A program made the position numbers and the translations under genes. This document shows, in pieces, positions 4,337-18,255 of a stretch of DNA of 64,000 bases. The notes below the pieces were generated by a model. It had not been told where the DNA came from and made no database searches. It saw only the letters and a program-made list of their open reading frames with translations. The first letter of the stretch is position 1; each line of letters begins with the position of its first letter. This DNA is from Acidimicrobiia bacterium (GTDB lineage Bacteria; Actinomycetota; Acidimicrobiia; IMCC26256; PALSA-610), in assembly GCA_038320885.1 (NCBI GenBank), contig JBBQER010000002.1, forward strand, positions 43,086 to 107,085, given 5' to 3'.

Positions 4337-4804
4337 TTACGCGGCTTCGACTTTGAATACGGGGTAGCCGGGCGCGATGGCGGCGAGCTGGTCGTCGGAG
4401 GCGTCGGGGCCGACACCGTCGAAGAACACGCCGACTTCCGCCTTCCAGTGGCGCAGGTAGTCACGGAGGATGTCGACCTTGTCGGCGGCGGCAACGGGGA
4501 CGGCGCGGAACGCCTCCACCCGGCGTCCGACGCGCAGCTCGCCGGTTCCGGCGGCCTCGATGTTGCGGACCCACTGCGTGAGCCCGCGAGGGGCGACGAG
4601 GTAGCGGGCGCCGTCGTGGTGCAGGAGATTGACCGGCGTCTTGCGCCACTCCCCTGATGCGCGGCCCCGCACCCGGAGCTCGCGGGACCCGCGCACGCTC
4701 AGGCCGGCGCGGGTCAACCACACCACGAGCTTGTTGAACACGTTGCGGGTGAACCAGCCGGGCTGGAGGTAGCGGGGGCCGGCGGTGGTGGTGATGGCGG
4801 TCAT
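4337..4804 (-). CDS. deazaflavin (F420)-dependent nitroreductase family protein (DUF385/Ddn-like)
   Basis: MTAITTTAGPRYLQPGWFTRNVFNKLVVWLTRAGLSVRGSRELRVRGRASGEWRKTPVNLLHHDGARYLVAPRGLTQWVRNIEAAG... Internal ATG at 4802-4804. Confidence 0.7.
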   Translation of the reverse strand: MTAITTTAGPRYLQPGWFTRNVFNKLVVWLTRAGLSVRGSRELRVRGRASGEWRKTPVNLLHHDGARYLVAPRGLTQWVRNIEAAGTGELRVGRRVEAFRAVPVAAADKVDILRDYLRHWKAEVGVFFDGVGPDASDDQLAAIAPGYPVFKVEAA

Positions 4805-4829
4805 GGCGGGTCCTTCCTCGGGGTCGAGC

Positions 4830-4913
4830 GAGAGCACTGCTCTCGATTGCAGTGTGATCGCCTCGAGCCCACTTGTCAAGAGCAGTGCTCTCGATTCGTG
4901 GCAGTGCTCTCGG
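4830..4913. promoter_or_regulatory. three copies of an operator-like motif (GAGAGCACTGCTCTC palindrome and two AGCAGTGCTCTCG(A/G) repeats)
   Basis: 4830-4844 GAGAGCACTGCTCTC (7-1-7 palindrome), 4879-4896 AAGAGCAGTGCTCTCGATT, and 4901-4915 GCAGTGCTCTCGGAT. All lie between the divergent F420-reductase and TetR starts. Confidence 0.55.
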
Positions 4914-4933
4914 ATCAGGGCTACGCTCCGGGA

Positions 4934-5638
4934 ATGCCCACGACGTCAGCGCCGACCGCCCGGGACCGGGCCCGGGCCGAGCTCACCGACGAGATCAAGG
5001 CCGTTGCCCGCCGGCATCTGGTGGAGCACGGCTCGGCGGCCCTGTCGTTGCGCGCGGTCGCCCGCGAGGTCGGCATGGTGTCGTCGGCCGTGTACCACTA
5101 CTTCCCCAGCCGCGACGAGCTGCTGACCGCGCTCATCGTCGACGCCTACAACGCGGTCGGCGCCGCTGCGGAAGACGCGCTCGCCGCGCACCGCCGCCGG
5201 GGCCCCGGCGCCCGCTGGCTCGGGGTGAGCCAGGCGATCCGAGCGTGGGCACTGGCGCATCCGCACGAGTACGCGCTCATCTACGGCAGCCCGGTGCTCG
5301 GCTACGCCGCGCCCCCGGACACGATCGACCCGGCCTCGCGCGTCGCGTTGGCACTCCTGCAGATCGTCGTGGACGGCGTCGCCACCGGCAAGATCGCCGA
5401 CCGAGACGCGTCGTCGATACCCCGGGTCGTGCACGCCGACTTCGCCGGGCTCCGCGAGCTCGCGGCACCCGGCGTCTCCGATGCGGTGTTGTCTCGCACC
5501 TTGCTCGCGTGGTCACAGTTGTTCGGCAGTATCAGCCTCGAGATGTTCGGCCATTTGCACAACGTGATCCACGACTACGACGCCTACTTCACGTTCCAGA
5601 TGCGACGGACCGCCGAGTTCCTCGTCGAAGGGACGTGA
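4934..5638 (+). CDS. TetR family transcriptional regulator
   Basis: LSLRAVAREVGMVSSAVYHYFPSRDELLTALI is a TetR_N HTH. Internal ATG at 4934. Confidence 0.85.
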   Translation: MPTTSAPTARDRARAELTDEIKAVARRHLVEHGSAALSLRAVAREVGMVSSAVYHYFPSRDELLTALIVDAYNAVGAAAEDALAAHRRRGPGARWLGVSQAIRAWALAHPHEYALIYGSPVLGYAAPPDTIDPASRVALALLQIVVDGVATGKIADRDASSIPRVVHADFAGLRELAAPGVSDAVLSRTLLAWSQLFGSISLEMFGHLHNVIHDYDAYFTFQMRRTAEFLVEGT

Positions 5639-5642
5639 CGCC

Positions 5643-5954
5643 ATGAGCCCCGAGCCCCACGCCCCGCTACCCGACGACGCGATCACCATTGCCGACAATC
5701 GCGACGCGAGCCGCTACGAGCTGCGCGTCGGTGGCGAGCTGGCCGCCTACGTCACCTACCGGGTCTCGTCGGACCGCATCGCGTTCATCCACACCGAGAC
5801 CCTCGACACATTCGAGGGCCACGGCATCGGAGGTCGCCTCGTACGGTTCGCGCTCGACGCCGCAAGCACCCGGGGCCTCCGGGTCATCCCGCGGTGCCCA
5901 TTCGTGAAGCGCTACATCGCCGTGCACCCGGAGTATCAAGACCTCGTGGGCTAG
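5643..5954 (+). CDS. small GNAT-family N-acetyltransferase (YjdJ-like)
   Basis: ...IAFIHTETLDTFEGHGIGGRLVRFALDAASTRGLRVIPRCPFVKRYIAVHPEYQDLV. Confidence 0.75.
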   Translation: MSPEPHAPLPDDAITIADNRDASRYELRVGGELAAYVTYRVSSDRIAFIHTETLDTFEGHGIGGRLVRFALDAASTRGLRVIPRCPFVKRYIAVHPEYQDLVG

Positions 5955-6208
5955 CCGTTCGACGAGGTATTCGACTCGGTCCGAAGGGAGATCCGGTTCC
6001 GTGGGCTCAGCGCGGGCGACTGACACTTCGGGTGCCCGCACGAAGCGGTCATCCCGGTCTGCACATCGCTGCGGCTGACCGCGACGATACGGCGCTCGCA
6101 CCAACAGGAGACCGGGAGCACACCCGAATCCGGCTTCACATTCATGAAGCCGTGGGCGTCGTAAACAAGCGGCGACGGCGCGTATCGGCGGTGTCGACTG
6201 GCAGTCAT
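5951..6208 (-). CDS. hypothetical small Cys-rich protein (85 aa)
   Basis: MTASRHRRYAPSPLVYDAHGFMNVKPDSGVLPVSCWCERRIVAVSRSDVQTGMTASCGHPKCQ... has CxC...CxxxxC. AAGGAA lies about 10 nt upstream of the ATG at 6206-6208. No family recognised. Confidence 0.4.
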   Translation of the reverse strand: MTASRHRRYAPSPLVYDAHGFMNVKPDSGVLPVSCWCERRIVAVSRSDVQTGMTASCGHPKCQSPALSPRNRISLRTESNTSSNG

Positions 6209-6490
6209 CGGTTCGAATTCCTTTCGCGACAAAATGGACCAGCCCCGCGGAATGTGTAGAGGAGTATGCCGAAAGACGGCGCAGAGCCGCCTCCCCCGAA
6301 GGAGTGAGTCACTTCGAGTGCACGCACGACGACCGAGCGCGACAAAACCGAGCGAGACCCCGGCACCGACGAGAACCACTCATGCAAAGGCTGGCTTTAC
6401 CCACTCTGGTGGGCAAACATGCACGTAAGTCGGCAGGGATGCCGGCGGGGTGGCTACAGATTCAAACCCGTGGCGCTGTAGTCGCGCACT

Positions 6491-6528
6491 CCGGGCCGGG
6501 GGCTGACGTGGGTCGGCTCCCGGCCCGG
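6491..6528 (-). terminator. GC-rich hairpin just downstream of the LuxR-family gene
   Basis: CCGGGCCGGGGGC...GGCTCCCGGCCCGG forms a near-perfect 13-14 bp stem 14 nt past the stop at 6542. No clear U-tract. Confidence 0.45.
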
Positions 6529-6541
6529 CAGCGCAAATCAG

Positions 6542-7168
6542 CTACCCCGCGCTGACCCGCCGGAATCTCGGGTCGGCCGCGATCCGGGCGACCGCCTGCG
6601 CCCGCGAGCCGACACCGGCCTTCTGAAAGATTGCCTTCAGGTGGCTCTTCACGGTGTGCTCGCTGATGGACAGCGCATCGGCCATGTCGCGGTTCGACAG
6701 GCCCTCGCCAAGGAACGCCGCCACCTCGCTCTCGCGCGCCGTGAGGCCGAAATCGTGGCCGGGCCACGTGTAACCCCGCGGGCGGCGGAAGATCGGGCTG
6801 ACCACGAGATCGCCGTCGGCGATGGCGAGCAACGCGTGCACCAGAGCCTCTGCGGGCTCCGACTTCGCGATCACGCCGCGCGCGCCCGCGGCGACTGCGG
6901 CCTCGCACTGCTCGCTCGTGATCGCCCACGTGTACACGACGACGGCGCCGATCCGCAGATCGCCCGCGAGCAGTCGCACCCGGTCGGGGCCGTTGCGCGG
7001 GTGCCCGTAGGTGTCGAACAGCGCGACGTCGACCGACTTGCGCGGGGTGCGCCCGACGTCGAGCTCGACGACGCGAATGCGATCGCGGAACGGATCGAGC
7101 AACGCGGCGAGCCCGCGGACGACGAGGTCGTAGTCGTTGACGATGGCGACGCGTTTGAGTCGCGTCAT
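6542..7168 (-). CDS. LuxR/NarL-family response regulator
   Basis: REC-like N-terminus (VAIVNDYDLVVRGL..., VDVALFDTYG, GARGVIAKS) and a C-terminal LuxR HTH (LTARESEVAAFLGEGLSNRDMADALSISEHTVKSHLKAIFQKAGV). Confidence 0.85.
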   Translation of the reverse strand: MTRLKRVAIVNDYDLVVRGLAALLDPFRDRIRVVELDVGRTPRKSVDVALFDTYGHPRNGPDRVRLLAGDLRIGAVVVYTWAITSEQCEAAVAAGARGVIAKSEPAEALVHALLAIADGDLVVSPIFRRPRGYTWPGHDFGLTARESEVAAFLGEGLSNRDMADALSISEHTVKSHLKAIFQKAGVGSRAQAVARIAADPRFRRVSAG

Positions 7169-8049
7169 TACAACTCGCCGCGTGCCATCAGCTCGACCGG
7201 ATCCTGCATGCGCACCATGCCGAGATAGCCACCTCCGCGCGGAAGACTGTCGTGCATGGCATACCCGAGAAGCTCCTGCGCCACACGCGGAAGCGTCGCC
7301 GCGATCGCCGGTGGCGTCGAGAGATAGTTGTTCTCCTCGGTACGCAGCCAGCCGAGGCAGTAGCTGAGGTGCGCGCCGCGACGCGGGATATCGGTGACGT
7401 TCGCGCCGCCGGCGTGGATCGTGCCGCCCGTGTAGACGACGGCGGATCCCGCGGACATCTCCGCGTACGCGATCTCTTCGGGCCGGGGCGCGCGTTGCTG
7501 CAGCTGCTCGGTGGGCAGGAGCTGCCGATCAGGCCAGCGATGACTGCCCGGAACGATCCGCGTCGCTCCGTTCTCGCGTGTGAAATCGACGAACGCGATC
7601 ACCGTGGCGAGCTGGAGCTCGGGTGCCGGCTTCGGCACGTCGCTCCATACCGCCTCGTCGCGATGAAGCCACTGCTCGTCGGATCCGGGACCACGTTGCA
7701 ACAGATGCCCGAGGTTGAGCTGATAGCGCGCGCACGACGGCGCGAGGATCCGATCGCACAGTGCGAGAAGCAACGGATGGCACATGACGTCGACCGCGAA
7801 GGTCCGTGAGATGCCCGGCATCCCCGCGACCTGCTTCGTGAACCGGCCGTGAAACGCTTGCATGACCGGGTTGAACAGCGCCTCGTTCGGGTCGGCCGCG
7901 GCGACGGCATCCTCGACCTCCGCGTTCACGTGGTCGACGACATCGAGTGAGAGCAACCCCTCGATGATCGCGGCGCCGTCGCGCTCGATCGCGGCGTGGA
8001 TCGCATCGGGATCGCTGCCGCCGGTGAAGTGTTGGAGTGTGCCGTCCAT
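7168..8049 (-). CDS. phytanoyl-CoA dioxygenase (PhyH) family Fe(II)/2-oxoglutarate oxygenase
   Basis: ...QWLHRDEAVW..., NGATRIVPGSHRW, GGTIHAGGAN. The stop overlaps the LuxR start (TAATG at 7166-7170). Confidence 0.75.
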   Translation of the reverse strand: MDGTLQHFTGGSDPDAIHAAIERDGAAIIEGLLSLDVVDHVNAEVEDAVAAADPNEALFNPVMQAFHGRFTKQVAGMPGISRTFAVDVMCHPLLLALCDRILAPSCARYQLNLGHLLQRGPGSDEQWLHRDEAVWSDVPKPAPELQLATVIAFVDFTRENGATRIVPGSHRWPDRQLLPTEQLQQRAPRPEEIAYAEMSAGSAVVYTGGTIHAGGANVTDIPRRGAHLSYCLGWLRTEENNYLSTPPAIAATLPRVAQELLGYAMHDSLPRGGGYLGMVRMQDPVELMARGEL

Positions 8050-8102
8050 TTCAAGGAGGCTACGCCTGCAGTAACTTTGAGGCCTGTGCATGATCGTGCG
8101 CT

Positions 8103-9308
8103 GTGAGGCTCGGTAGGCGGAAAGCCGCGGGTCGTTCGACGACGGCCGGCTTCGTGGGGTGGCTCACCCTCGCCGGGATCATCGCGGTCCTGATCGCCGG
8201 CGCGGCCACCGCGGTTGCGGGTCACTCGGCCGGTGAGCGCGAAGCGATCGTCGACCTGCGCGCGAAGACACTGGGCCTCGCGCAGCTCCGAATCCAGCCC
8301 GCCGTCACCGATGCCCTGCTCACGGGCAACATCACGGCCGTCGGGGAAGTCGGCGCCGCCGTGCGGCACTACGTGCTCGACAATTCCGTGGCACGCGTGA
8401 AGATCTGGAACCGCGACGGCACGATCGTCTACTCCGACGAGGCGCGCCTGATCGGCACCCACCAAGCGCTGCAAGGCAGTGAGCTCGCAACCATCCAGTC
8501 GAACGCCGTGCGCTCACGGGTAAGCGACCCGTCGAGGCCCGAGAACCGGTTCGAGCGATCCGAGGGCAAGCTGCTCGAGGTCGATCTGCGGATCATCACG
8601 CCCAACCGGCAGCCGCTCGTGCTCGAGGTGTTCTATCGCTATGGCGCGGTCGAGTCCGCCGGCGGTCGCGTGTGGAATCGCTTCGCGCCGTTCGTGCTCG
8701 GCGCGTTGGTGGCGGCGGCGGTCGTGCTGATTCTCGTAGCGTCGCTACTTGCGCGGCGGCTACGTCGACGCAGCCGGGTTCCCGAAACCGTACCGTTCCC
8801 CCAAGATCCCATCTCGCAGGAACCGGTCGGGCCGGAACCGATCGGGCCGGAACCGGTCGGGCCGGAACCGGTCGTCGCAGAGTCGCTGGCGCCCTACATC
8901 GCGGCGTCCGCCGCGGAACCGGATCCCGGAACGCACCTGGTCGACGCGCTCTCGCTATTGGTCGCGCGTACGAACGGCGACGGCATCGCGAGCACGCTCG
9001 ACACGCACGACGTGCACAACACGATTCCACCCGCGGTGGCGGAGATGCTGTTCCGAGCGACGGAAGAGACCTTGCGCAACCACGATCGCGCGACGCCCGT
9101 GACGGTGCGCGTCTCCGACCGCGATCACGTCGCCACGCTCGACGTGATCGACCAGGCCGGGGCGGGCGAAGGGGCAGCCCACCCGACCGGGGGTCACCTC
9201 GACCTCGGGGCGCTCACCGACCTGGTCGCCGACGCCGGCGGCCGGTTGGTGGTCGACGCGGCCGAGAACGGCGGTACGCGCGTGCACGTCGAAGTGCCGC
9301 TGCAGTGA
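8103..9308 (+). CDS. membrane sensor, histidine-kinase-like (HATPase_c-like C-terminus; no recognisable H-box)
   Basis: TM1 (FVGWLTLAGIIAVLIAGAA), an extracytoplasmic domain (VKIWNRDGTIVYSDEARLIG), TM2 (FVLGALVAAAVVLILVASLL), a Pro-rich repeat linker, then LFRATEETLRNHDRATPVTVRV...VIDQAGAG...GGRLVVDAAENGGTRVHVEVPL (N- and G-box-like). Confidence 0.7.
   Translation: MRLGRRKAAGRSTTAGFVGWLTLAGIIAVLIAGAATAVAGHSAGEREAIVDLRAKTLGLAQLRIQPAVTDALLTGNITAVGEVGAAVRHYVLDNSVARVKIWNRDGTIVYSDEARLIGTHQALQGSELATIQSNAVRSRVSDPSRPENRFERSEGKLLEVDLRIITPNRQPLVLEVFYRYGAVESAGGRVWNRFAPFVLGALVAAAVVLILVASLLARRLRRRSRVPETVPFPQDPISQEPVGPEPIGPEPVGPEPVVAESLAPYIAASAAEPDPGTHLVDALSLLVARTNGDGIASTLDTHDVHNTIPPAVAEMLFRATEETLRNHDRATPVTVRVSDRDHVATLDVIDQAGAGEGAAHPTGGHLDLGALTDLVADAGGRLVVDAAENGGTRVHVEVPLQ
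8819..8878 (+). repeat. 15-bp tandem repeat, 3 full copies plus 1 partial (GGAACCGGTCGGGCC)
   Basis: ggaaccggtcgggcc / ggaaccgatcgggcc / ggaaccggtcgggcc / ggaaccggtcgtcgc, encoding QEPVGPEPIGPEPVGPEPVV inside the sensor gene. Confidence 0.9.
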
Positions 9309-9339
9309 ATCGCGTGAAGCGGGGACTCCGGAAGCCGCG

Positions 9340-9516
9340 TCAGGCGAGCGCGGCGCTGACCGACTGAGGATCCGCGGGCTCTGCCGGCTGCACGACGGGA
9401 CGCTCGCCGTCGGCGACGAGCTGCGCGACTTGGCGCATGGCTTCGTCGGCGGGAATGCCCATGCGCTCGGCCAGGATGACGATGTCCTTGGCGTCGGCAG
9501 CGCTTTGTGTCGTCAT
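9340..9516 (-). CDS. hypothetical small protein (58 aa), N-terminal paralog of 9700-9948
   Basis: MTTQSAADAKDIVILAERMGIPADEAMRQVAQLVADGERPVVQPAEPADPQSVSAALA. Internal ATG at 9514-9516 is preceded by CTCGAGG. Confidence 0.5.
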   Translation of the reverse strand: MTTQSAADAKDIVILAERMGIPADEAMRQVAQLVADGERPVVQPAEPADPQSVSAALA

Positions 9517-9533
9517 CTGGCCTCGAGAAGGGG

Positions 9534-9571
9534 GATGCGCCCCCCGGGCACAAGTCCCAGGGGAACGCATC
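9534..9571 (-). promoter_or_regulatory. 5' leader hairpin upstream of small gene 9340-9516
   Basis: The minus-strand RNA GAUGCGUUCCCCUGGGACUUGUGCCCGGGGGGCGCAUC is fully paired only if two G-U pairs are allowed. On the plus strand these positions would be C-A mismatches. Confidence 0.5.
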
Positions 9572-9699
9572 ATTTGGGGAATGCTTCAATACAGAGTATG
9601 ACAGGAATCACTTCAGTGAACAATAAGCAACATCAACAACACTGACCACAGAAGGTAGTGATCTGGACCCGAGGAGCGGGCAACGAGGATGAACCCCGA

Positions 9700-9948
9700 T
9701 CATGCGGTTTCGTGGATGGCGTCCGCGAGTTTCTTTACCGAATAGTGCACGGTCGAAACATGGAGATCATCGGCCCTTCGCAATGGGGCACTCTGCTCGT
9801 ATTCGGCCGCGCAGAAAGTCCGAAGTACGTTCGCGTTCTCGACGCTTTCCATACGCCGCGTCACGAGGCGAACCGCTTCGCCGACTGGGATTCCCATCCG
9901 CTGGGCCAGCGTGACCAGGTCGTGGGCGTTGGATGTGTGTGGTGTCAT
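9700..9948 (-). CDS. hypothetical small protein (82 aa)
   Basis: MTPHTSNAHDLVTLAQRMGIPVGEAVRLVTRRMESVENANVLRTFCAAEYEQS... Internal ATG at 9946-9948 is preceded by CTCGAGG. Confidence 0.55.
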   Translation of the reverse strand: MTPHTSNAHDLVTLAQRMGIPVGEAVRLVTRRMESVENANVLRTFCAAEYEQSAPLRRADDLHVSTVHYSVKKLADAIHETA

Positions 9949-9962
9949 CGTGCCTCGAGGGT

Positions 9963-9999
9963 GATGCGTCCCCTGAGCGGATTGCCCAGGGGACGCATC
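9963..9999 (-). promoter_or_regulatory. 5' leader hairpin upstream of small gene 9700-9948
   Basis: GATGCGTCCCCTG (9963-9975) and CAGGGGACGCATC (9987-9999) form a perfect 13-bp stem with an 11-nt loop, 14 nt upstream of the start codon. Confidence 0.55.
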
Positions 10000-10034
10000 C
10001 TCGGGATGCTTCACCACTCACTATGGCGAGATGG

Positions 10035-10052
10035 ACTTTCGCCACACTTTCA
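10035..10052 (-). promoter_or_regulatory. SARP-box-like direct repeats (TGAAAGT-N4-CGAAAGT), 9 nt upstream of CATAGT
   Basis: The minus strand reads TGAAAGTGTGGCGAAAGT-CCATCTCGC-CATAGT. The heptamers are 11 bp apart. Confidence 0.5.
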
Positions 10053-10079
10053 AATCAAACAACAGGCGTTACAACGCCT
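10051..10079 (-). terminator. rho-independent-type terminator after beta-helix gene 1
   Basis: Minus strand AGGCGTTGTAACGCCT hairpin followed by GTTGTTTGATTTG, starting 11 nt after the TAA stop at 10090-10092. Confidence 0.65.
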
Positions 10080-10089
10080 CTCCTGCGCG

Positions 10090-10699
10090 TTATGCGTTGA
10101 TCGCGGCGGACGGGTTCGATGCCGGTCCCGTGCCCCGACTGTTCGTTGCGGTGACCGTGCACTGGTAGCTCCTCCCGGGCGTCAGCGCGGTGACCGTGAT
10201 CGGACTCGCAGTTCCGGTCTTGGTCTTCGTCACACCACCGTTCGACGATGCACACGTCGCGCTGAAGCTCGTGATCGGAGCCCCGTTGCTCATCGGTGCT
10301 GCGAACGCAACCCGCAACGAGCCCGAGGCCGGCCTGGTCACCGTCGGGGTCCCGGGCTGTCCCGGAGCACCCGCGATCATCGCCGGGCTCTTCGCCGACG
10401 CCGGACCGAAGCCCACCGCGTTCCGCGCCGCGACCGTGAACTGATATGACGTCCCGTCGGTCAAGCCGGTGATGAACTGAGTCGTCGCCGTCGAGTTGAA
10501 GACCTGCGCCGGCTGCGCGACACCACCCGCGTACGGCACGATCCGGTACCCGGTGATCGCCGAGCCACCATTGCTCGTCGGCGCCCGCCACACCACCTTG
10601 GCCCCGTGATCGTTGTACGGAACCGCAAACGCCGGCGCGGGAGCGGACGGAACCGTCGCCGGACACTGCGCCGCAAGGTTGCTCGACCGCAGGAACGGC
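10090..10699. repeat. 610-bp direct repeat, copy A (3' end of beta-helix gene 1)
   Basis: Aligns without net indels to 13069-13678 (constant offset 2979). It is near-identical over roughly 10300-10690 and covers the FN3-FN3 coding part. Confidence 0.85.
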
Positions 10700-12864
10700 A
10701 CGGTGGTCGCGCTCCCGGTCACTTGACCGCCGGTCGGACCTGCCGTCGAACCCCACCAGTTGCACGTGGCGTTGACCGTCGTCGCGCCGGTGTTGTTCAA
10801 GCTGACCAGGGCATTTCGATTCGCCGCGAGCGTTGCCGTCGCAGTCCCGGTCTCCTCGACGTACACACCGGTGCCCGGACCGGAGATGTGGTTGTGATGG
10901 GCATTCACATGGACCTCGCCGTCTCCGAAGCCGAACGTGTCGGTCGACACGACCAGCCCGAATCCGCCGGACACGGTGGTAACGGTGTTCGTCGTGAACA
11001 CCACGGTCGGGATGTTGCCACCCGCGCAGAAATTCGTTCCGTTGAAGTCGCAGCTCGCGAACGCGGCCAGGGCCGTGTCGCAACCCGAAACCGTGTTGCC
11101 GCTGATGGTCGGAACCAGGTACGGCACGAACGTCCAGATGCCGTAACCACCGGCGGTGCAGCTCGAGACGGTGTTCCCGCTGATCACATCGGGCGTCCCG
11201 CCGCCGTCACCGGCGTTGTCGGTGTGGACTCCGCTCGCCGACGTCGTGACGACATTGCCCGTGAAGGTCGTGCCGTTCGAGTGGTTCGCCGAGACGCCGT
11301 CGCCGGAATTCGAGACGTGGTTGCCCGACATCGTGCCGCCGCCACCGAAGTCGAAGATCGCGATCGATGACGTTGAACCGTTCACGTTGTCGACGATGTT
11401 GTTGCTGATGGTGAACGTTCCTCCACTCGATGCGTAGATACCGCGCAGCCAGACGTTCTTGACGGTCACGTCGTGCACCGAAAGGTTGTTGTACAGACCC
11501 GCGAGGTGGTTCGTGATGATCCCGTTGCGGGCATCGATGTTGGCGCCGCCGATGTTCTCGGTGCTGGTCAACGTCGGGTTGTCGCCGTCGATCTTGAGGT
11601 GATCGATCGTCACGTTGCTCGACTGCACAAGGAACACGCTGCTCGCGCCGCCACACAGCGAGCCACCGCCGAATCCCCCGCAGTTGGGGTCGGAGACGGC
11701 AGGCTGAACGATCGTGGTCACGCCCGCGCCCATGACCCGAACGCTCTTGGGCACGACCACGTTCTCGCGGTAGGTGCCGGCTGCGACGTTGACGGTGCCG
11801 CCGGCTGTGACTGCGTTGACGCCGCCCTGGATGGTCTTGAGCGGATCGTTGGCCTGGCCAGAGGCGGCGTCGTCACCGGTGGCGCCGTCCACGTAGCAGG
11901 TGGTGGTGCAGTTGTCGTTGGTCGTGAGCTTGACCCCGTCGAAGAGGAAGCCCTGGCCGTTGTTGAGCGGGTCGTTGCCGCCGCCCTCACGCAACTCGAG
12001 GTTCCGCACGATACGGGTCTGGTCGGCCAACGGCCCACCAGTTCCGCCGCCGGACTCGCTGCAGTACCGGTAGTAGTTCTCCCAGCTCGTGCCCGAAGCC
12101 ACGAGATTGCCGTCGAGGAGCACGTGAACGATGTCGTTGTTGCCACCGGGCACGAGCTTCATCACGAAACGGAGATTGTGCGGAGTCGAACGCGAGAGGT
12201 TCGTCGCGATCTGCGTCTCGACGAAGTTCCCTGTCACAGGGACGTCGCAGCCGTCGTTCAGGTTGCCTCCGGAGCCGTACGGGGGAGCGTCCTGGACGTC
12301 GTCGAAGAACACCTGCCAGCCCGTTGGCGAGTCCTCGATCCGCACGTAGCTCATCCGGGCGCCATCGCCGCGATCGGGTGAGACCGAAATGTGCAAGCCC
12401 GGCTGTTCGGTCGAAGGTGTGGTCGAGGCAAAGTCGAACGACGCACCGAAGTTGGAACGGAGCGTTCCCGTCGGGAACCCACCAGTGTTCGCACCCGGCT
12501 CGCCGGCCGCGTCGGTCGTCGACTTCGTGTACGTCTGGTCAGCGAAGCTGCCACTCGTGACCGCATCGGAGATCCGGAAACTCTTGGTCCCAAAACTCGC
12601 CGGCGCGAACGGGAACCCGCTGTTGTCGACAACCGCCTGGTCGAACGAACCCGTGCTCGCCCAGCCGTCCTGACCGTTCACCGAGCCCGTGGCGTACCCC
12701 GACTCGAACGTGATCGGACCCACCGTGTCCGCAGCAGCACCCGTCGCCGACAACGCGACCGCGCCAACCGCCCCACCGGTCACCAAACCCGCGCTCGCGA
12801 GCAAGGCAACAACACGACGAAGCCCTCCCAAGCGCGCCGACTTCCGAACGTCCTTCGTCCTCAT
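10090..12864 (-). CDS. secreted protein: signal peptide, N-terminal ~270-aa domain (possibly lectin/ConA-like), right-handed parallel beta-helix, two FN3 domains (924 aa)
   Basis: Internal ATG at 12862-12864 (MRTKDVRKSARLGGLRRVVALLASAGLVTGGAVGAVALSATGAAA). Beta-helix-type repeats follow (NVTIDHLKIDGDN..., SNNIVDNVNGS..., GNHVSNSGDG..., GNVVTTSASG..., GNTVSSC...), then CNWWGS. Then 2 x FN3 (GYRIVPY...TDGTSYQFTVAARNAVGFGPAS; GRSYQCTVTATNSRGTGPAS). Confidence 0.8.
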   Translation of the reverse strand: MRTKDVRKSARLGGLRRVVALLASAGLVTGGAVGAVALSATGAAADTVGPITFESGYATGSVNGQDGWASTGSFDQAVVDNSGFPFAPASFGTKSFRISDAVTSGSFADQTYTKSTTDAAGEPGANTGGFPTGTLRSNFGASFDFASTTPSTEQPGLHISVSPDRGDGARMSYVRIEDSPTGWQVFFDDVQDAPPYGSGGNLNDGCDVPVTGNFVETQIATNLSRSTPHNLRFVMKLVPGGNNDIVHVLLDGNLVASGTSWENYYRYCSESGGGTGGPLADQTRIVRNLELREGGGNDPLNNGQGFLFDGVKLTTNDNCTTTCYVDGATGDDAASGQANDPLKTIQGGVNAVTAGGTVNVAAGTYRENVVVPKSVRVMGAGVTTIVQPAVSDPNCGGFGGGSLCGGASSVFLVQSSNVTIDHLKIDGDNPTLTSTENIGGANIDARNGIITNHLAGLYNNLSVHDVTVKNVWLRGIYASSGGTFTISNNIVDNVNGSTSSIAIFDFGGGGTMSGNHVSNSGDGVSANHSNGTTFTGNVVTTSASGVHTDNAGDGGGTPDVISGNTVSSCTAGGYGIWTFVPYLVPTISGNTVSGCDTALAAFASCDFNGTNFCAGGNIPTVVFTTNTVTTVSGGFGLVVSTDTFGFGDGEVHVNAHHNHISGPGTGVYVEETGTATATLAANRNALVSLNNTGATTVNATCNWWGSTAGPTGGQVTGSATTVPFLRSSNLAAQCPATVPSAPAPAFAVPYNDHGAKVVWRAPTSNGGSAITGYRIVPYAGGVAQPAQVFNSTATTQFITGLTDGTSYQFTVAARNAVGFGPASAKSPAMIAGAPGQPGTPTVTRPASGSLRVAFAAPMSNGAPITSFSATCASSNGGVTKTKTGTASPITVTALTPGRSYQCTVTATNSRGTGPASNPSAAINA

Positions 12865-12974
12865 GGAACACTCCCCCACTTCCGTGTCGGTAGCCGTTCC
12901 GCGCCGGTTGAGCACCCACGCGCGTCGACCGCGGCCGCCGAATGCGACCAACCCGCGAAACCTACCGGCGCGGT

Positions 12975-12992
12975 GCTTTCGCCAGACTTTCG
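12975..12992 (-). promoter_or_regulatory. SARP-box-like direct repeats (CGAAAGT-N4-CGAAAGC), 10 nt upstream of TAGGTT
   Basis: The minus strand reads CGAAAGTCTGGCGAAAGC-ACCGCGCCGG-TAGGTT (-10 at 12959-12964), upstream of beta-helix gene 1. Confidence 0.55.
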
Positions 12993-13031
12993 TGGGAACG
13001 CAAACGCTCGCAGTGAGCCAACCGCGTCCGC

Positions 13032-13058
13032 GTCCCCCGGGCTGAGTGCCCGGGGGAC
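13032..13058 (-). terminator. perfect 11-bp-stem hairpin after beta-helix gene 2
   Basis: GTCCCCCGGGC-TGAGT-GCCCGGGGGAC, 11 nt past the TAA stop at 13069-13071. No U-tract. Confidence 0.5.
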
Positions 13059-13068
13059 ATTTGGGCAC

Positions 13069-13678
13069 TTATGCGGTGATCGCGGGGGACGGGTCCGACA
13101 CCGGTCCCGTGCCCCGACTGTTCGTGGCCTTGACCGTGCACCGGTAGCTCCTGCCAGGCGTCAGCCCGGTGACCGTGATCGGACTGGCGGTTCCGGTCTT
13201 GTTCTGCGTCACACCACCGTTCGACGACGCGCACGTGGCGGTGAAGCTCGTGATCGCAGCCCCGTTGGCCATTGGCTTCGCGAACGCGACCCGCAACGAG
13301 CCCGAGGCCGGCCGGGTCACCGTCGGGGTCCCGGGCTGTCCCGGAGCACCCGCGATCATCGCCGGGCTCTTCGCCGACGCCGGACCGAAGCCCACCGCGT
13401 TCCGTGCCGCGACCGTGAACTGGTACGACGACCCGTCGGTCAAGCCGGTGATGAACTGCGTCGTCGCCGTCGAGTTGAACACCTGCGCCGGCTGCGCGAC
13501 CCCCGCCACGTACGGCACGATCCGATACCCGGTGATCGCCGAGCCACCATTGCTCGTCGGCGCCCGCCACACCACCTTGGCCCCGTGATCGTTGTACGGA
13601 ACCGCAAACGCGGGCGCCGGAGCGGACGGAACCGTCGCCGGACACTGCGCCGCGAGATTGCTCGACCGCAGGAACGGC
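13069..13678. repeat. 610-bp direct repeat, copy B (3' end of beta-helix gene 2)
   Basis: See copy A at 10090-10699. Confidence 0.85.
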
Positions 13679-15744
13679 GTTGTCGTGACGGTCCCTTCTG
13701 TCTGTGCCGGAGCCGGTCCCGAAGTCTGACCCCACCAGTTGCACGTCCCGTCGAGGGTTCCGACGGTGCCAGTCGCCACCGAGATACCGGCCGAGGTGTT
13801 GCTGGTCGCAATGTTGTTGCGGATCACCTTGAAGTTGCCGTTCGAGATGTCGGCCGGGCTGCCGTCGTTGGCAACGCGAACACCGTGGTAACTGTTGCTG
13901 AAGGTGTTCCCGGTGACCGTCACCGGCCCCACGAAGTTCGGCTGCGCGAACGTCCGGATCCCCGAGCCGCGGTTCCCGCTCGACATGGGCGTGTCGTTGT
14001 GGATGTTGTCGAACAGGTTGCCGCTGATGGACAGATTGCCGAGCGTGTCGGCCAGCAAGATCCCGTACTGGTGAATGTCCGAGAACGTGTTGCCCGAGAC
14101 GGTGCCGCTGACGGTGTTGAGGTTGATCGCCGGCACACCGTCTTGGTCGGTGAGCTGGGAGAACGTGTTCCCCGTGATCGTCACGACGGCTTGCGCTCCG
14201 CCCGTAGTGCCCCACGGCGCGATGACACCGGTACCGGGTGAGCCGGTCTGACCGATGGCCGTGAACTTGTTGTTGGTGAAGGTCGACGTCGCTGCGCTGT
14301 CGTCGAAGACGAGCGAGTTCACGTAGGTGGAGTTATCGACCAGGTTGTTCTTGAAGGTCAGGTGGTTCGAGGCCGCGAGCGAGAGCACCAAGCCACCGTT
14401 CTGCTCGGTGCCCGCGAATTGCGCCCGGAAGCCGTCAATCGTGACCTGGTTCGGCGTCGTGATGTTGAAAATGGAGCCGGGTTCCGATGCGATCAGCTTG
14501 ACCAAACTCTCGGGGCCGCGTGCGGCAGTGCCCGCGACGCCGGCGTTCGCACCCCGCAACGTGAGGGCATGACCGATGGTCAACGCCTCGTCGTAGGTTC
14601 CGGGCAGCACCTGGACCGTGTCACCCGACAGCGACTTGTTGATCCCGTACCGCTGGATCGTGCTGTAGAGGCCGGCGATGTTGGTGAACGCGCCCGACGC
14701 CCAGGTCCGAGCGGCACCGCTCGGGCACACGGTCGTGCCCTGCCAGATGAACGACCCGGCATCGAACGTGTTGCCCGCGATCGTGGCGCACCAGTCGGGC
14801 GAGATGTAGCCGACACCCGGTCCCCCGTCACCCCACACCAGCAGGTGACGCCGGGCGATACTCGAGAACGTGTTGCCGGTGATCGTCGCCGCCCCGACCG
14901 GATAGACCAGCCAAGGCTGTGCTCCTGGGCCCGCGAAGTCCATCGCGTCGTCCATGTTCGAGAACGCGTTGCCGGAGATCACCCGGCCGCTCGTCGGTCC
15001 GGTCCAGCCGGCGCCGCTCGCGACGTAAATCGCCGACTCGTTCTGGTCACCGTCGAAGGTGTTGTCGGTGAAGTGGTAGGTCGTCACCGTGGAGGTGCCG
15101 CTGCCGCTCGGGTCGAAGTGGAAGTCACTGATGTAGATCCCGACGCCACCGGACGTCGTCGACGGCGCGAACGCGGTGTCGGTCACCGTGGAACCGTTGC
15201 CCGCGATCTCGACGGACTTGGCGATGTCGTTCGGCGTGCCGTTGATCTCGAGACCGCTGATGGTGACGTTGGCGGCCTGGACGAAGATGTTCGACGATCC
15301 GAAGGTGGGCTCCGACGCCGCGGCCTCCACCACGGGCGCGTTCACGGGCGTGGCGCCTTGCGGAGCGCTCGTGATCGCATTGCCCGCTGCGTCGAGTCCC
15401 AAGATCGTCACCGGGGTCCCGACGAAGATGTTGAAGTTGTTGGCGCCGGTACCGCCGGTATTCGGGTCACGGTTGAGCGCCTGGTCCTGGTTGTAGAGGC
15501 CGGGCCACAGGCAGACGGTGTTGCCGGAGGTCGCCGCGTCGATACCACCCTGGATGGTCGTAATCGCACTCTGGACCGCGTTCGCGTCGACGATGACGTC
15601 GCACGCCGGCGCGGCGCCCGCACTCGCCGAACCGATCACGAGTCCCGCCGCGCCTCCGCCGACCAGGCATGCGCTCGCGAGCAGGGCAACCAAACGATGA
15701 AGCCCTCCCAAGCGCGCCGACTTCCGAACGTCCTTCGTCCTCAT
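13069..15744 (-). CDS. secreted protein: signal peptide, long right-handed parallel beta-helix, two FN3 domains (891 aa)
   Basis: MRTKDVRKSARLGGLHRLVALLASACLVGGGAAGLVIGSASAGAA, then beta-helix-type repeats (GNTFS..., NNLVDNS..., GNTFSQL..., GNTFSDI..., GNLFDNI..., GNTFSNS...), CNWWGQ, and 2 x FN3. Confidence 0.8.
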   Translation of the reverse strand: MRTKDVRKSARLGGLHRLVALLASACLVGGGAAGLVIGSASAGAAPACDVIVDANAVQSAITTIQGGIDAATSGNTVCLWPGLYNQDQALNRDPNTGGTGANNFNIFVGTPVTILGLDAAGNAITSAPQGATPVNAPVVEAAASEPTFGSSNIFVQAANVTISGLEINGTPNDIAKSVEIAGNGSTVTDTAFAPSTTSGGVGIYISDFHFDPSGSGTSTVTTYHFTDNTFDGDQNESAIYVASGAGWTGPTSGRVISGNAFSNMDDAMDFAGPGAQPWLVYPVGAATITGNTFSSIARRHLLVWGDGGPGVGYISPDWCATIAGNTFDAGSFIWQGTTVCPSGAARTWASGAFTNIAGLYSTIQRYGINKSLSGDTVQVLPGTYDEALTIGHALTLRGANAGVAGTAARGPESLVKLIASEPGSIFNITTPNQVTIDGFRAQFAGTEQNGGLVLSLAASNHLTFKNNLVDNSTYVNSLVFDDSAATSTFTNNKFTAIGQTGSPGTGVIAPWGTTGGAQAVVTITGNTFSQLTDQDGVPAINLNTVSGTVSGNTFSDIHQYGILLADTLGNLSISGNLFDNIHNDTPMSSGNRGSGIRTFAQPNFVGPVTVTGNTFSNSYHGVRVANDGSPADISNGNFKVIRNNIATSNTSAGISVATGTVGTLDGTCNWWGQTSGPAPAQTEGTVTTTPFLRSSNLAAQCPATVPSAPAPAFAVPYNDHGAKVVWRAPTSNGGSAITGYRIVPYVAGVAQPAQVFNSTATTQFITGLTDGSSYQFTVAARNAVGFGPASAKSPAMIAGAPGQPGTPTVTRPASGSLRVAFAKPMANGAAITSFTATCASSNGGVTQNKTGTASPITVTGLTPGRSYRCTVKATNSRGTGPVSDPSPAITA

Positions 15745-15856
15745 AGCACTCTCCCCACTTCGGTCTCAGAGGTCGTTCCGCTTGGGTTGAAGATCCCACG
15801 CGCGTCGACCGGCGGTCACAGAAGTGCGACCAACGCGCGGAACATACCCAGTGCAC

Positions 15857-15874
15857 GCTTTCGTGTCACTTTCG
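15857..15874 (-). promoter_or_regulatory. SARP-box-like direct repeats (CGAAAGT-N4-CGAAAGC), 10 nt upstream of TATGTT
   Basis: The minus strand reads CGAAAGTGACACGAAAGC-GTGCACTGGG-TATGTT (-10 at 15841-15846), upstream of beta-helix gene 2 and 66 bp downstream of the SARP stop codon. Confidence 0.55.
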
Positions 15875-15910
15875 CGTCCGCGAAAAGCGCGCAAATCCGG
15901 CACAAACCGT

Positions 15911-15955
15911 CAGGAGATCGGCCGGCAGGAGATCGGCCGTCAGCAGATCGTCAAC
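15911..15955. repeat. 15-bp tandem repeat x3 straddling the SARP stop codon
   Basis: caggagatcggccgg / caggagatcggccgt / cagcagatcgtcaac. The third copy encodes the last SARP codons and the other two lie past the stop. Confidence 0.85.
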
Positions 15956-16806
15956 CCGGCCCGTAGTGACCGTTGGTCCACGTCGATCGCTTCTTCGTGG
16001 TCGGCGATCACCACATCGGCGTGGTCGATCGCCGTTCGGCGATCGCGGAGGAGTTCGGGGTCGCCCCTCAGGATGCGACTGTGGAGCCGTTGCAGGTCTT
16101 CGTGCGGATCGACACCGAAGTCGGTGAGCAGGAGCCGCCGCAGATCCTCGTACGCCGCGAGCGCCTCGATCTGGCGACCGCCTCGATACAACGCGGTCAT
16201 CTGATGCGCGCGGAGGCGCTCTCTCCACGGATTCGCCGCGATGATCGATTCAATATCGGGCAGCAACTCGAGATGACGTCCGCAGCGCAGATAGGCAGCA
16301 TTGCGCGACTCGATCAGCCCGAGATGGAACTCTCGCAAGCGGCGGGCGGTTACGTCATAGAACGGAAAGTTCGCGACGTCGGCGAGCGGCTCACCGCTCC
16401 AGCACCCGAGTGCGCGGTCGAACTCCACAGCCGCGCGCTTGGCATCGCCATGACCGAGTGCGCTCCGCGCCGCGACTGCGGATGCCTCTGCCCGCGAGAG
16501 GTCGAGCTCGTCGGGCTGCAGCTCCATCCGGTAGCCCCCCGACTCACTCACGATCAAGGGCGCGACATCTTCGAGCGCGCGGCGCAGTCGACAGACCACG
16601 ATGTGCAGCGCGGACTCCGGATGTTGCGGTGGTGTCTCGCCCCAGATGCCGTCGATCAAGTTCGACGAGCTCACGGTGCGATTGACATCGAGCAGGAGCC
16701 GGGCCAGCAGCGCGCGTTGGCGGGGGGCGGCGATCTTCACGACACGCGTCCCGACCTTGACGCCGACAGGCCCGAGGACGCTGCACCGAAGGGGCTGGTC
16801 GATCAT
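15940..16806 (-). CDS. SARP-family transcriptional activator (OmpR-type winged helix + BTAD)
   Basis: MIDQPLRCSVLGPVGVKVGTRVVKIAAPRQRALLARLLLDVNRTVSSSNLIDGIWGETPP...YRMEL, then BTAD (...WRERLRAHQMTALYRGGRQIEALAAYEDLRRLLLTDFGVDPHEDLQRLHSRIL). Internal ATG at 16804-16806. Confidence 0.85.
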   Translation of the reverse strand: MIDQPLRCSVLGPVGVKVGTRVVKIAAPRQRALLARLLLDVNRTVSSSNLIDGIWGETPPQHPESALHIVVCRLRRALEDVAPLIVSESGGYRMELQPDELDLSRAEASAVAARSALGHGDAKRAAVEFDRALGCWSGEPLADVANFPFYDVTARRLREFHLGLIESRNAAYLRCGRHLELLPDIESIIAANPWRERLRAHQMTALYRGGRQIEALAAYEDLRRLLLTDFGVDPHEDLQRLHSRILRGDPELLRDRRTAIDHADVVIADHEEAIDVDQRSLRAGLTIC

Positions 16807-17046
16807 GAGTTGATTCCTCCGCGCCCCCGCTGAGCACTTCGGCAGCATTGTAGAACCTATTACGCGACATTCACAGCCCGCGCACACGAAGAAATACCCA
16901 AGTGAACGCGTTCGTCACAGAAAAAATTGGTCGATCTGCTTTCGCGCCCCGAGTCGTCTAACGTCGCGCCACGCGTTTTGGCAGACGGGTCGTCCGTCCG
17001 TGTGTCACGATCGAGTCGGGGGCACGGATTGGCCGCAAGCCATGCA

Positions 17047-18255
17047 ATGCCCATGGAGGGGGCGGACGTGCCGTCCGCAACCCGGCGGCGGTCCGCGTCG
17101 TCGCAGCTCAACGATGCGCTCATTCTCGACGCCGGCTTACACGAGATCGAAGCAGTCGGCATCGATCGGTTCGGCATGAGCGCAGTCGCGCGCCGCGCGG
17201 GGTTGACCACCGGCGCGCTGTACGGCCGTTACGAGAGTGGAGCGGAGCTTGCCGCCGCGGTGTGGAGCGTTCGGGTCCGCGATCGCCACTTCGAGCTCAT
17301 CGACAGTGCGATCGCCGCGCTCGTCGACCGTACGGCCCCGCCCGCGCTCGACGAGCTGCTCGAGGAGCTCGCCTCGCCCTCCACCGAGACGGTCGTCGCG
17401 CTCGAGATCCTCGGAACCGCGCGCCGCGTCGACGAGCTGGAGGAGGTGGTGCTCGCCGACGTGAACCAGTGGATGACGCACTGGGCGGCCGGTCCGAGAA
17501 CGCGCCGCAGACGGCGCCGGGCCCAAGTCGTGTACACGTTGGCAACATTATGGGGAGTTCTCCTGCACCGGGGCCCCGGACATCGGCGCCTCGACTGGAG
17601 CCCGACGTTGCGCGGGTTGCACCGGTCATTCGGGCGCCCGTACGACGAACCGTCGGATCGGCTCGTGGCCAACATCCCGGCGCTCGTGCGCTCGCAAACT
17701 GACGACGCGGTTGAAGACGCTCTCATCGACGCCGTCGCCGCCATCGTTTCCCGTGTCGGATTGGAGCGCGCGACCGGGTCCCGGATCGCGCGCCGGGCGG
17801 GCCTCACCTCCGGCGCGATCTACGGCAGGTACGAGAACAAGGAGGCCCTCCTCGAGCACGCCATCGACAGCCTGCTCGCCCGCCGGCTCACCGACGACGT
17901 GGGATCCCTGGACGAGATACTCGTTGCCGGCGATCCGGGCGCGGTGACGGCGCAAATCGTGGCCGGCTACCTCAGCCCGCCACGGCGGGACTGGCGAAGA
18001 TTTCGGATCGAGGCGCACCTCGCCGCGCGCACGCACCCTCATGTCGCCGCGACACTCGACCGGGTGCAGGAACACGCGAAACGCGAGTACCTGACCGCCG
18101 TCGGCGCCCGCACACCGAAGGAACGACGCGAGTTCGACATCCTCGCCCGCTCTGCGCAAGTGACACCGGTGGGCCTCGCCTTCACCGATCTTCTCGTTCC
18201 CGGCGTTCCCGCCATCGACTGGCGGCTGGTGCTCTGCCCATTGTTGTCGCCCTGA
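17047..18255 (+). CDS. tandem-duplicated TetR-family regulator (two TetR_N HTH units in one polypeptide)
   Basis: HTH 1 is IDRFGMSAVARRAGLTTGALYGRYESGAELAAAVW. HTH 2 is LERATGSRIARRAGLTSGAIYGRYENKEALLEHAI. The start is uncertain (ATG 17047 chosen; the track ORF starts at 16927). Confidence 0.7.
   Translation: MPMEGADVPSATRRRSASSQLNDALILDAGLHEIEAVGIDRFGMSAVARRAGLTTGALYGRYESGAELAAAVWSVRVRDRHFELIDSAIAALVDRTAPPALDELLEELASPSTETVVALEILGTARRVDELEEVVLADVNQWMTHWAAGPRTRRRRRRAQVVYTLATLWGVLLHRGPGHRRLDWSPTLRGLHRSFGRPYDEPSDRLVANIPALVRSQTDDAVEDALIDAVAAIVSRVGLERATGSRIARRAGLTSGAIYGRYENKEALLEHAIDSLLARRLTDDVGSLDEILVAGDPGAVTAQIVAGYLSPPRRDWRRFRIEAHLAARTHPHVAATLDRVQEHAKREYLTAVGARTPKERREFDILARSAQVTPVGLAFTDLLVPGVPAIDWRLVLCPLLSP

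Follow-up and report, generated by a model that had tools for sequence, protein, structure and literature searches.

The window analysed here, a 64-kb stretch of contig JBBQER010000002.1 from an Acidimicrobiia bacterium, contains on its minus strand a gene for a regulator of the SARP (Streptomyces antibiotic regulatory protein) family, two genes for secreted beta-helix proteins and two genes for very small proteins. Three promoters of this group carry a pair of direct heptamer repeats, YGAAAGY, which is likely the operator of the adjacent small SARP. The SARP gene (15940..16806) encodes 288 aa, an OmpR-type winged helix followed by a BTAD domain, and its start codon, the ATG at 16806, agrees with where the orthologues have their N-termini. 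Beta-helix gene 2 (13069..15744; Pfam Beta_helix and fn3) encodes a secreted right-handed beta-helix with a signal-peptide-like N-terminus and two C-terminal FN3 domains. The product of beta-helix gene 1 (10090..12864; Pfam NosD and fn3) is also secreted and combines an N-terminal domain with a NosD-like beta-helix and two FN3 domains. Small gene 1 (9700..9948, 82 aa) shows a conserved N-terminal LAxRMGIPxxEA motif in its translation and in the family alignment. Small gene 2 (9340..9516, 58 aa) is a paralogue from the same family with a box-less promoter. These gene assignments agree with the original prediction made for this DNA.

Box 2, CGAAAGT-gaca-CGAAAGC, lies at 15857..15874 5' of beta-helix gene 2. 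Box 1, CGAAAGT-ctgg-CGAAAGC, is found at 12975..12992 5' of beta-helix gene 1, and box 3, TGAAAGT-gtgg-CGAAAGT, at 10035..10052 5' of small gene 1. All three are on the minus strand, which is the strand of the genes they precede, and reading this strand reproduced the predicted positions and sequences. In each box the two heptamers are exactly 11 bp apart, and a -10-like hexamer of the form nAnnnT follows 9-10 bp downstream, as had been claimed. The predicted hexamers, also on the minus strand, are TATGTT (15841..15846), 10 bp past box 2, TAGGTT (12959..12964), 10 bp past box 1, and CATAGT (10020..10025), 9 bp past box 3. A -35-like hexamer is present at the beta-helix gene 2 promoter only; the other two box promoters have none. 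A third upstream repeat was sought at the three window boxes and not found.

A pattern search of both strands of the window with YGAAAGYNNNNCGAAAGY (YGAAAGY-N4-CGAAAGY) returns three exact matches where 0.01 are expected, and none of 100 shuffled control sequences reaches three. The prediction that the window holds no other CGAAAG pair with 11-bp spacing is thereby borne out. Single CGAAAG motifs occur 19 times against 28 expected and are not enriched, so the non-random feature is the paired, phased arrangement. With two mismatches allowed, one extra match appears at 34510, and the core GAAAG-N6-GAAAG with at most one mismatch gives one extra match at 9849, within the coding sequence of small gene 1; both are at chance level. 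The two beta-helix promoters are paralogous, as their leaders and signal peptides align, and therefore do not count as independent. They represent one observation plus a footprint, in which the heptamers are identical although the 4-nt and 10-nt spacers differ. The small gene 1 promoter lies in unrelated surrounding sequence and is thus the second independent occurrence of the box in the window.

The domain content of the regulator is clear. Pfam Trans_reg_C matches residues 27-93 (E=3.5e-08, 33.9 bits, cut-off 26.2), and directly after this DNA-binding domain BTAD matches at full length over residues 101-246 (E=4.4e-37). Residues 6-252 align with the SARP domain of AfsR from end to end (8hvr, E=3.5e-48), and EmbR is matched as well (2fez, E=7e-33). 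Judged by this domain pair, the protein is a genuine SARP of the "small" type, as originally proposed. Its orthogroup comprises about 70 proteins of 53-78% identity, all from uncultured Actinomycetota or Acidimicrobiia, below which there is a gap until generic SARPs follow at 45%. Among 31 orthologues with 50-77% overall identity to the window SARP, the recognition-helix region PPQHPESALHIVVCRLR hardly varies, and it differs in four outgroup SARPs. The base-contacting residue R92 of AfsR aligns with R73 of the window SARP, and T88 of AfsR aligns with Ile69. This latter change is compatible with a recognition sequence unlike that of AfsR. A single CGAAAG at 16939-16944, upstream of the SARP gene, was considered as a site of SARP autoregulation and rejected; it is unconserved, and no paired box is found 5' of any SARP gene.

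Strong evidence comes from related loci. We compared L001, the sole relative that a scan of a genome collection with the SARP returned, and nine loci with SARP orthologues, and scored them by the core GAAAG-N6-GAAAG with at most one mismatch. In the SARP-retrieved loci the core, where found, is always on the strand of the downstream gene, either just past the stop codon of the SARP or ahead of a beta-helix or small gene. L001 and L002 carry a box before a beta-helix gene and another before small gene 1. In L003 one box precedes a 394-aa open reading frame with a signal-peptide-like N-terminus and one precedes the small gene; the called NosD/beta-helix/FN3 gene of this locus starts further downstream. 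In L004 and L005 the box lies directly after the SARP and precedes a small gene; in L008 it precedes a beta-helix gene, and in L007 a gene for a DUF4082/beta-helix protein, 4.7 kb upstream of the SARP. L015 has three tandem heptamers, CGAAAGC-cgaa-CGAAAGC-cgaa-CGAAAGT, with 11-bp spacing at 4383-4410 of the plus strand before a gene for a collagen-like secreted protein (4780-6552), and on the other strand a further box that precedes a member of the small-gene family. The L015 secreted protein consists of collagen-like Gly-X-Thr repeats, and genes with Ice_binding domains lie upstream of the L015 SARP. The gene content of L015 implies that the regulon varies between genomes yet stays extracellular. 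The position directly after the SARP gene, which is that of box 2, carries a box in L001, L002, L003 and L008. When box 1 is aligned with its counterparts in L001, L002 and L012, the heptamers are invariant while spacers and flanks differ.

A second retrieval used a metagenome scan with the small-protein alignment, which contains no promoter information, and yielded six contigs (L009-L014). All six have a box before the first small gene, and the two with enough upstream sequence, L012 and L013, have a SARP orthologue just upstream. Taken over both retrievals, 13 of 13 first-copy small genes have a box within 250 nt, for which the chance expectation is about 0.002 per 250-nt promoter. Nine genes for secreted proteins have a box, one of them the version with three tandem heptamers. 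The exact pattern YGAAAGY-N4-CGAAAGY occurs ten times in about 205 kb of loci. Across loci whose SARPs share 54-78% identity the box persists 9-10 bp upstream of a -10-like hexamer, and no promoter-type box is present in two outgroup SARP loci. The box is thus inherited together with the SARP orthogroup, in which the recognition helix is fixed, and these two findings support, as far as sequence analysis allows, the original proposal that the box promoters are served by the adjacent SARP.

The same comparison bears on the possibility that the repeats are a by-product of duplication, paralogous promoters having been copied with their genes and having no regulatory role. The beta-helix promoters, leaders and signal-peptide regions of the window are clearly paralogous, and so are the small genes. 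The box is nevertheless common to beta-helix and small-gene promoters that are unrelated and whose surroundings cannot be aligned, and it persists at 54-78% SARP identity despite diverged spacers and flanks. It also precedes non-homologous targets, namely the collagen-like gene of L015 and the DUF4082 beta-helix gene of L007. In four of four loci with two small-gene copies the downstream paralogue has lost the box, which indicates that the sequence is not merely carried along with the copied gene. We therefore strongly disfavour this explanation and regard it as the least credible of those weighed.

We compiled 22 sites into a footprint. GAAA is invariant in both repeats save at one site, a result that is partly circular because these positions served for selection. 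Positions outside the selection are also biased: Y1, Y7, G8, T9, G11 and Y12. The 11-bp spacing of the repeats, found at three of three window sites, holds for all 22. The N9-10 spacer carries almost no information, and the hexamer behind it shows A at its second position in all 22 sites and T at its sixth in 18 of them. Orthologous promoters of the beta-helix class show TAGGTT, TAGCTT or TAGCGT at the same offset as the -10 of box 1, and those of the small-gene class show CATAGT, CATACT, CATAAT or CATGAT at N9-10. In alignments of both classes the flanks diverge around the conserved heptamers. Both classes have a conserved leader, which begins about 8 nt past the -10 in the beta-helix class (GGTCGC...GGTCGACGCGCG) and 7 nt past it in the small-gene class (GAAGCATCC). 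Conservation that sets in at the predicted transcript start supports the promoter assignment. If the predicted -10 is taken to occupy about -12 to -7, the repeats would reach from about -40 to -23 and replace or overlap the -35 region.

This architecture suggests the following mode of action. Two SARP protomers would bind side by side, one on each repeat, and because the repeats are 11 bp apart they would lie on the same face of the helix. If the -10 spans about -12 to -7, the distal heptamer would cover roughly -40 to -34 and the proximal one -29 to -23, matching the register that the afs box's two direct repeats have in the initiation complex of AfsR at afsS. Once bound, the SARP dimer would replace the missing -35 element and recruit the RNA polymerase holoenzyme. 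In the window, three transcription units would be activated in this way, those of beta-helix gene 2, beta-helix gene 1 and small gene 1. In the relatives, the same box would drive other secreted proteins, including the collagen-like one, and the first small gene.

Several observations weigh against the assignment of the box to the SARP. The SARP-orthologue loci L006 and L016 have no box within 8 kb, and the target gene types are absent there too. In the first eight loci there are 10 matches with at most one mismatch, where a Markov background gives 2.4 on average and at most 9; as the raw count is only modestly above background, the case draws its strength from position and strand. Because of their phylogenetic relatedness, the loci do not count as fully independent observations. 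The original prediction invoked SARP-box geometry, which the 11-bp repeats fit; the distance to the -10 departs from the canonical value. In published SARP sites the 3' repeat is 8 bp from the -10 (PMC10936776); here the proximal heptamer is 9 bp away at 16 of the sites and 10 bp away at the other 6. Reading the heptamer as GAAAGYN shortens the distance to 8-9 bp, and matching the 8-bp rule requires either this 1-bp shift or a complex that differs slightly. A consensus scan scores GTGACA-17-TATGTT at beta-helix gene 2 as sigma-70-like. Because this -35-like GTGACA overlaps box 2, the promoter may not depend strictly on an activator. Finally, the tandem-TetR gene that is divergent from the SARP gene (16927..18255, plus strand) is as tightly syntenic with the box as the SARP itself, and co-occurrence alone cannot separate the two.

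This last point leads to a different reader of the repeats. They could be the operator of the tandem-TetR protein, acting as a repressor, of a GerE-type response regulator, or of an OmpR-family regulator encoded elsewhere. A GerE-type regulator (L001-L003, L005) and a histidine-kinase-like gene (L001, L002) are also syntenic. Two regulators on one box have a precedent, as AfsR and PhoP share overlapping repeats at afsS (PMC10972967). However, promoters without a -35 element call for an activator rather than a repressor. Helix-turn-helix dimers of the TetR and GerE/LuxR types normally read inverted repeats, whereas OmpR/PhoB-type winged-helix proteins have as their signature tandem direct repeats that are one helical turn apart and keep a fixed distance from the -10. 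Regulators of the PhoP and GlnR types, too, read direct repeats with 11-bp phasing. The SARP is the only OmpR/PhoB-type winged-helix protein conserved in the loci, and throughout the orthogroup its recognition helix stays fixed along with the box. We consider binding by one of these other proteins unlikely and retain the SARP as the probable ligand of the box.

The promoters of the small genes are followed by a structured leader, and this raises the question of a role at the RNA level. In the window the conserved 5' leader of small gene 1 (9949..10012, minus strand) opens with GAAGCATCC 7 nt past the -10 in the alignment. The small-gene leaders contain a 15-bp GC-rich hairpin, GATGCGTCCCCTGGG...CCCAGGGGACGCATC, at 9999-9963 and 9571-9534 of the minus strand in the window, at 13953-14024 and 14446-14517 in L001, at 12538-12607 in L002 and at 12042-12135 in L003. 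Four pairs of its consensus fold are kept by compensatory changes. An Rfam scan of 9000-17500 gave nothing relevant, only a chance match to an internal ribosome entry site (E=0.23), and the leader hairpin is unmatched. The 5'-terminal GAAGCATCC could pair instead with the GATGC arm of the hairpin and might thereby act as a switch or as a stabiliser of the 5' end. In L012 (456-500) the box-driven small gene is nearly leaderless, with its ATG 10 nt past a -10-like TAGACC, which shows that the structured leader is not universal.

With conserved RNA structure so close by, the box itself might be an RNA element within read-through transcripts or a longer 5' untranslated region, each C-GAAA-G forming a GNRA tetraloop. 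In several loci the box is only 10-130 nt past the SARP stop codon, where SARP read-through could include it. Yet the bases flanking each CGAAAG are non-complementary, so that no hairpin can close the tetraloops, and the bases between and around the repeats vary freely without covariation. The fixed distance of 9-10 bp to nAnnnT and the onset of leader conservation only after the hexamer fit a promoter, and the Rfam scan offers no match. An RNA-level role of the repeats is therefore very improbable, and the box is best read as a DNA element, probably bound by the SARP.

The small proteins themselves have no family match in Pfam or NCBIfam. No more than 24 homologues were found, and each of them comes from uncultured Actinomycetota or Acidimicrobiia. 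For the small gene 2 protein, AlphaFold2 models a helix-loop-helix with a disordered tail at low confidence (pLDDT 64). Small gene 2 has a promoter of its own, at 9595-9663 of the minus strand in the window and at 14360-14445 in L001, with a conserved TTCCTGTCATACT and a T/G-rich stretch upstream. Examination of the window and L001 revealed a conserved terminator-like hairpin ahead of this promoter (9663-9644, loop TACCTTCT), the stem of which is compensatory in L001. The downstream small-gene copy is box-less in all four two-copy loci (the window, L001, L009 and L010), while its TTCCTGTCATACT-like -10 region is conserved. The original prediction had described a decayed single copy, CTGAAGT-N9-CATACT, at 9616-9595. 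This sequence exists, but its heptamer is unconserved at the equivalent places in L001, L009 and L010, and we rejected it as a functional half-site or box. Since its promoter lacks the box, the SARP probably does not act on small gene 2 directly.

The boxes appear to head separate transcription units, as hairpins follow beta-helix gene 2, beta-helix gene 1 and small gene 1. Behind beta-helix gene 2, direct reading of the minus strand gives a GC-rich hairpin, GTCCCCCGGGC-actca-GCCCGGGGGAC, at 13032..13058 without a T-tract. It probably marks the end of the transcript ahead of the next promoter, with a putative terminator role. A terminator scan places an intrinsic-terminator-like hairpin 3' of beta-helix gene 1 (10064..10079, minus strand), whose T-rich tail enters box 3, and another terminator-like hairpin 3' of small gene 1. 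Orthologues of beta-helix gene 1 in L001 and L002 have 72-75% identity and stand behind the same box. The two beta-helix genes share a near-identical 5' leader, signal peptide and C-terminal FN3 pair, and their N-terminal halves are unlike. The extra N-terminal domain of beta-helix gene 1, about 300 aa, is kept in L001, L002 and L012. The FN3 regions of both genes also have matching antisense open reading frames and hairpins. A sequence search of the PDB with the beta-helix proteins matched only their FN3 domains (titin and similar) and gave no functional clue.

The protein encoded by the divergent gene has 442 aa with two TetR_N domains (Pfam) in one chain, and two ABC transporter genes follow. 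Wherever a locus is long enough to show it, the gene keeps its synteny with the SARP, and the tandem-TetR protein is a conserved partner of the SARP and possibly its upstream controller. Against the ScbR-family model it scores weakly (58.7 bits, cut-off 150). Between the two genes lies the element ATAATAGGTTCTACAATG (16846-16863, minus strand), whose core is invariant in nine of nine aligned loci. It may represent the -10 of the SARP promoter overlapped by an imperfect palindrome, possibly a TetR operator. If so, the SARP would be under TetR control.

On the other side of the module, three genes between 6542 and 9308 are syntenic with it. The histidine-kinase-like gene (8103-9308, plus strand) has a weakly MctS-like C-terminus and no Pfam match, and it occurs in L001 and L002 and partially in L010 and L011. 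A PhyH dioxygenase gene (7168-8091, minus strand) and a response-regulator gene (6542-7168, minus strand) recur in L001-L003 and L005; the counterparts of the latter in L002, L003 and L005 have a GerE domain. Within about 12 kb we find genes for TetR regulators, ABC transporters, PhyH, the kinase-like protein, oxidoreductases, a methyltransferase and a sulfotransferase. No polyketide synthase, nonribosomal peptide synthetase, ribosomally synthesised and post-translationally modified peptide or other core biosynthetic machinery was found within about 12 kb of the SARP. The regulator does not classify as one situated in an antibiotic cluster, and the box stands before genes for secreted and small proteins only.

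SARPs are treated almost as markers of antibiotic clusters, and most of their known binding sites come from Streptomyces. A literature search for CGAAAG with SARP returned nothing relevant, and we found no report of a CGAAAG SARP box. On the comparative data, the locus very probably represents a known mechanism with a new specificity, YGAAAGY, and a new regulon. As the mechanism is already textbook knowledge, the advance is incremental and not conceptual. It provides a regulon prediction backed by comparative data for a SARP clade known from metagenomes only. The predicted targets are secreted beta-helix/FN3 and collagen-like proteins and a tiny-protein family of about 24 members, with no biosynthetic genes among them. 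The result also cautions that SARP genes alone are poor beacons for biosynthetic clusters. The promoter and its putative activator form a testable pair that could serve as an orthogonal expression part in actinobacteria. Beyond that, we tentatively suggest a self-contained module restricted to uncultured soil Actinomycetota. It would comprise a tandem-TetR sensor, a CGAAAG-specific SARP, changeable secreted surface proteins and a tiny helix-loop-helix protein with its leader RNA. In such a module the SARP might govern surface or extracellular functions in place of antibiotic synthesis, with the small protein as an AfsS-like effector; this wider picture is conceivable, and we hold it with much less conviction than the operator assignment.

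Compared with known systems, the divergent TetR-family gene and the conserved ATAATAGGTTCTACAATG between it and the SARP gene (nine loci) recall the cascade from a ScbR-type TetR receptor to a SARP. In contrast to that cascade, the TetR protein here is a tandem fusion of two units, and no autoregulator synthase gene was seen at the locus. By analogy, a ScbR-type link of TetR to SARP is offered as a hypothesis only. There is also a likeness to ActII-ORF4, DnrI, FdmR1 and VlmI, which are small SARPs of about 280 aa that use heptamer direct repeats with 4-nt gaps overlapping the -35 (PMC10972967). Published SARP sites in general have direct repeats 11 or 22 bp apart that overlap the -35 (PMC10936776, PMC10972967), and some have three repeats (PMC10972967), as some sites of this group do and as we observe at L015. 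Unlike the present SARP, these regulators are located inside antibiotic clusters and switch on biosynthetic operons, whereas here we predict tiny proteins and secreted proteins of the beta-helix/FN3 or collagen-like kind as targets.

The original prediction called a SARP regulon without an antibiotic cluster unusual. It is indeed uncommon, but there are precedents, as AfsR activates afsS (PMC10936776) and EmbR regulates non-antibiotic genes (PMC9239209). EmbR of Mycobacterium tuberculosis (2fez; PMC9239209) is similarly a SARP-family protein from outside Streptomyces, with a regulon of cell-envelope and virulence genes. It differs in its C-terminal FHA domain and its control by Ser/Thr phosphorylation, neither of which is seen in the window SARP, and the literature searched holds no CGAAAG-like box for EmbR.

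A further counterpart is AfsR on the afs box of the afsS promoter in Streptomyces coelicolor (cryo-electron microscopy structures 8hvr, 8k60 and 8jke; PMC10936776). AfsR has NOD and TPR domains, both of which are missing from the window SARP, and apart from R92/R73 its recognition helix differs. Its repeat is CGTT(T/C)ATCG (PMC10972967) in place of CGAAAG, and its distance to the -10 is 8 bp where we observe 9-10 bp. The afs box spans -40 to -19 with two 11-bp repeats, the first 8 bp of which are contacted by each protomer (PMC10936776). Both systems share the SARP domain architecture, two 11-bp direct repeats over the -35 region and a -35 that is weak or absent. A further likeness, in arrangement only, is the small-protein gene directly after the SARP in L004, L005, L012 and L013. 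An arrangement in the manner of AfsR-afsS, in which a small-protein gene follows a SARP, would in this way extend beyond Streptomyces.

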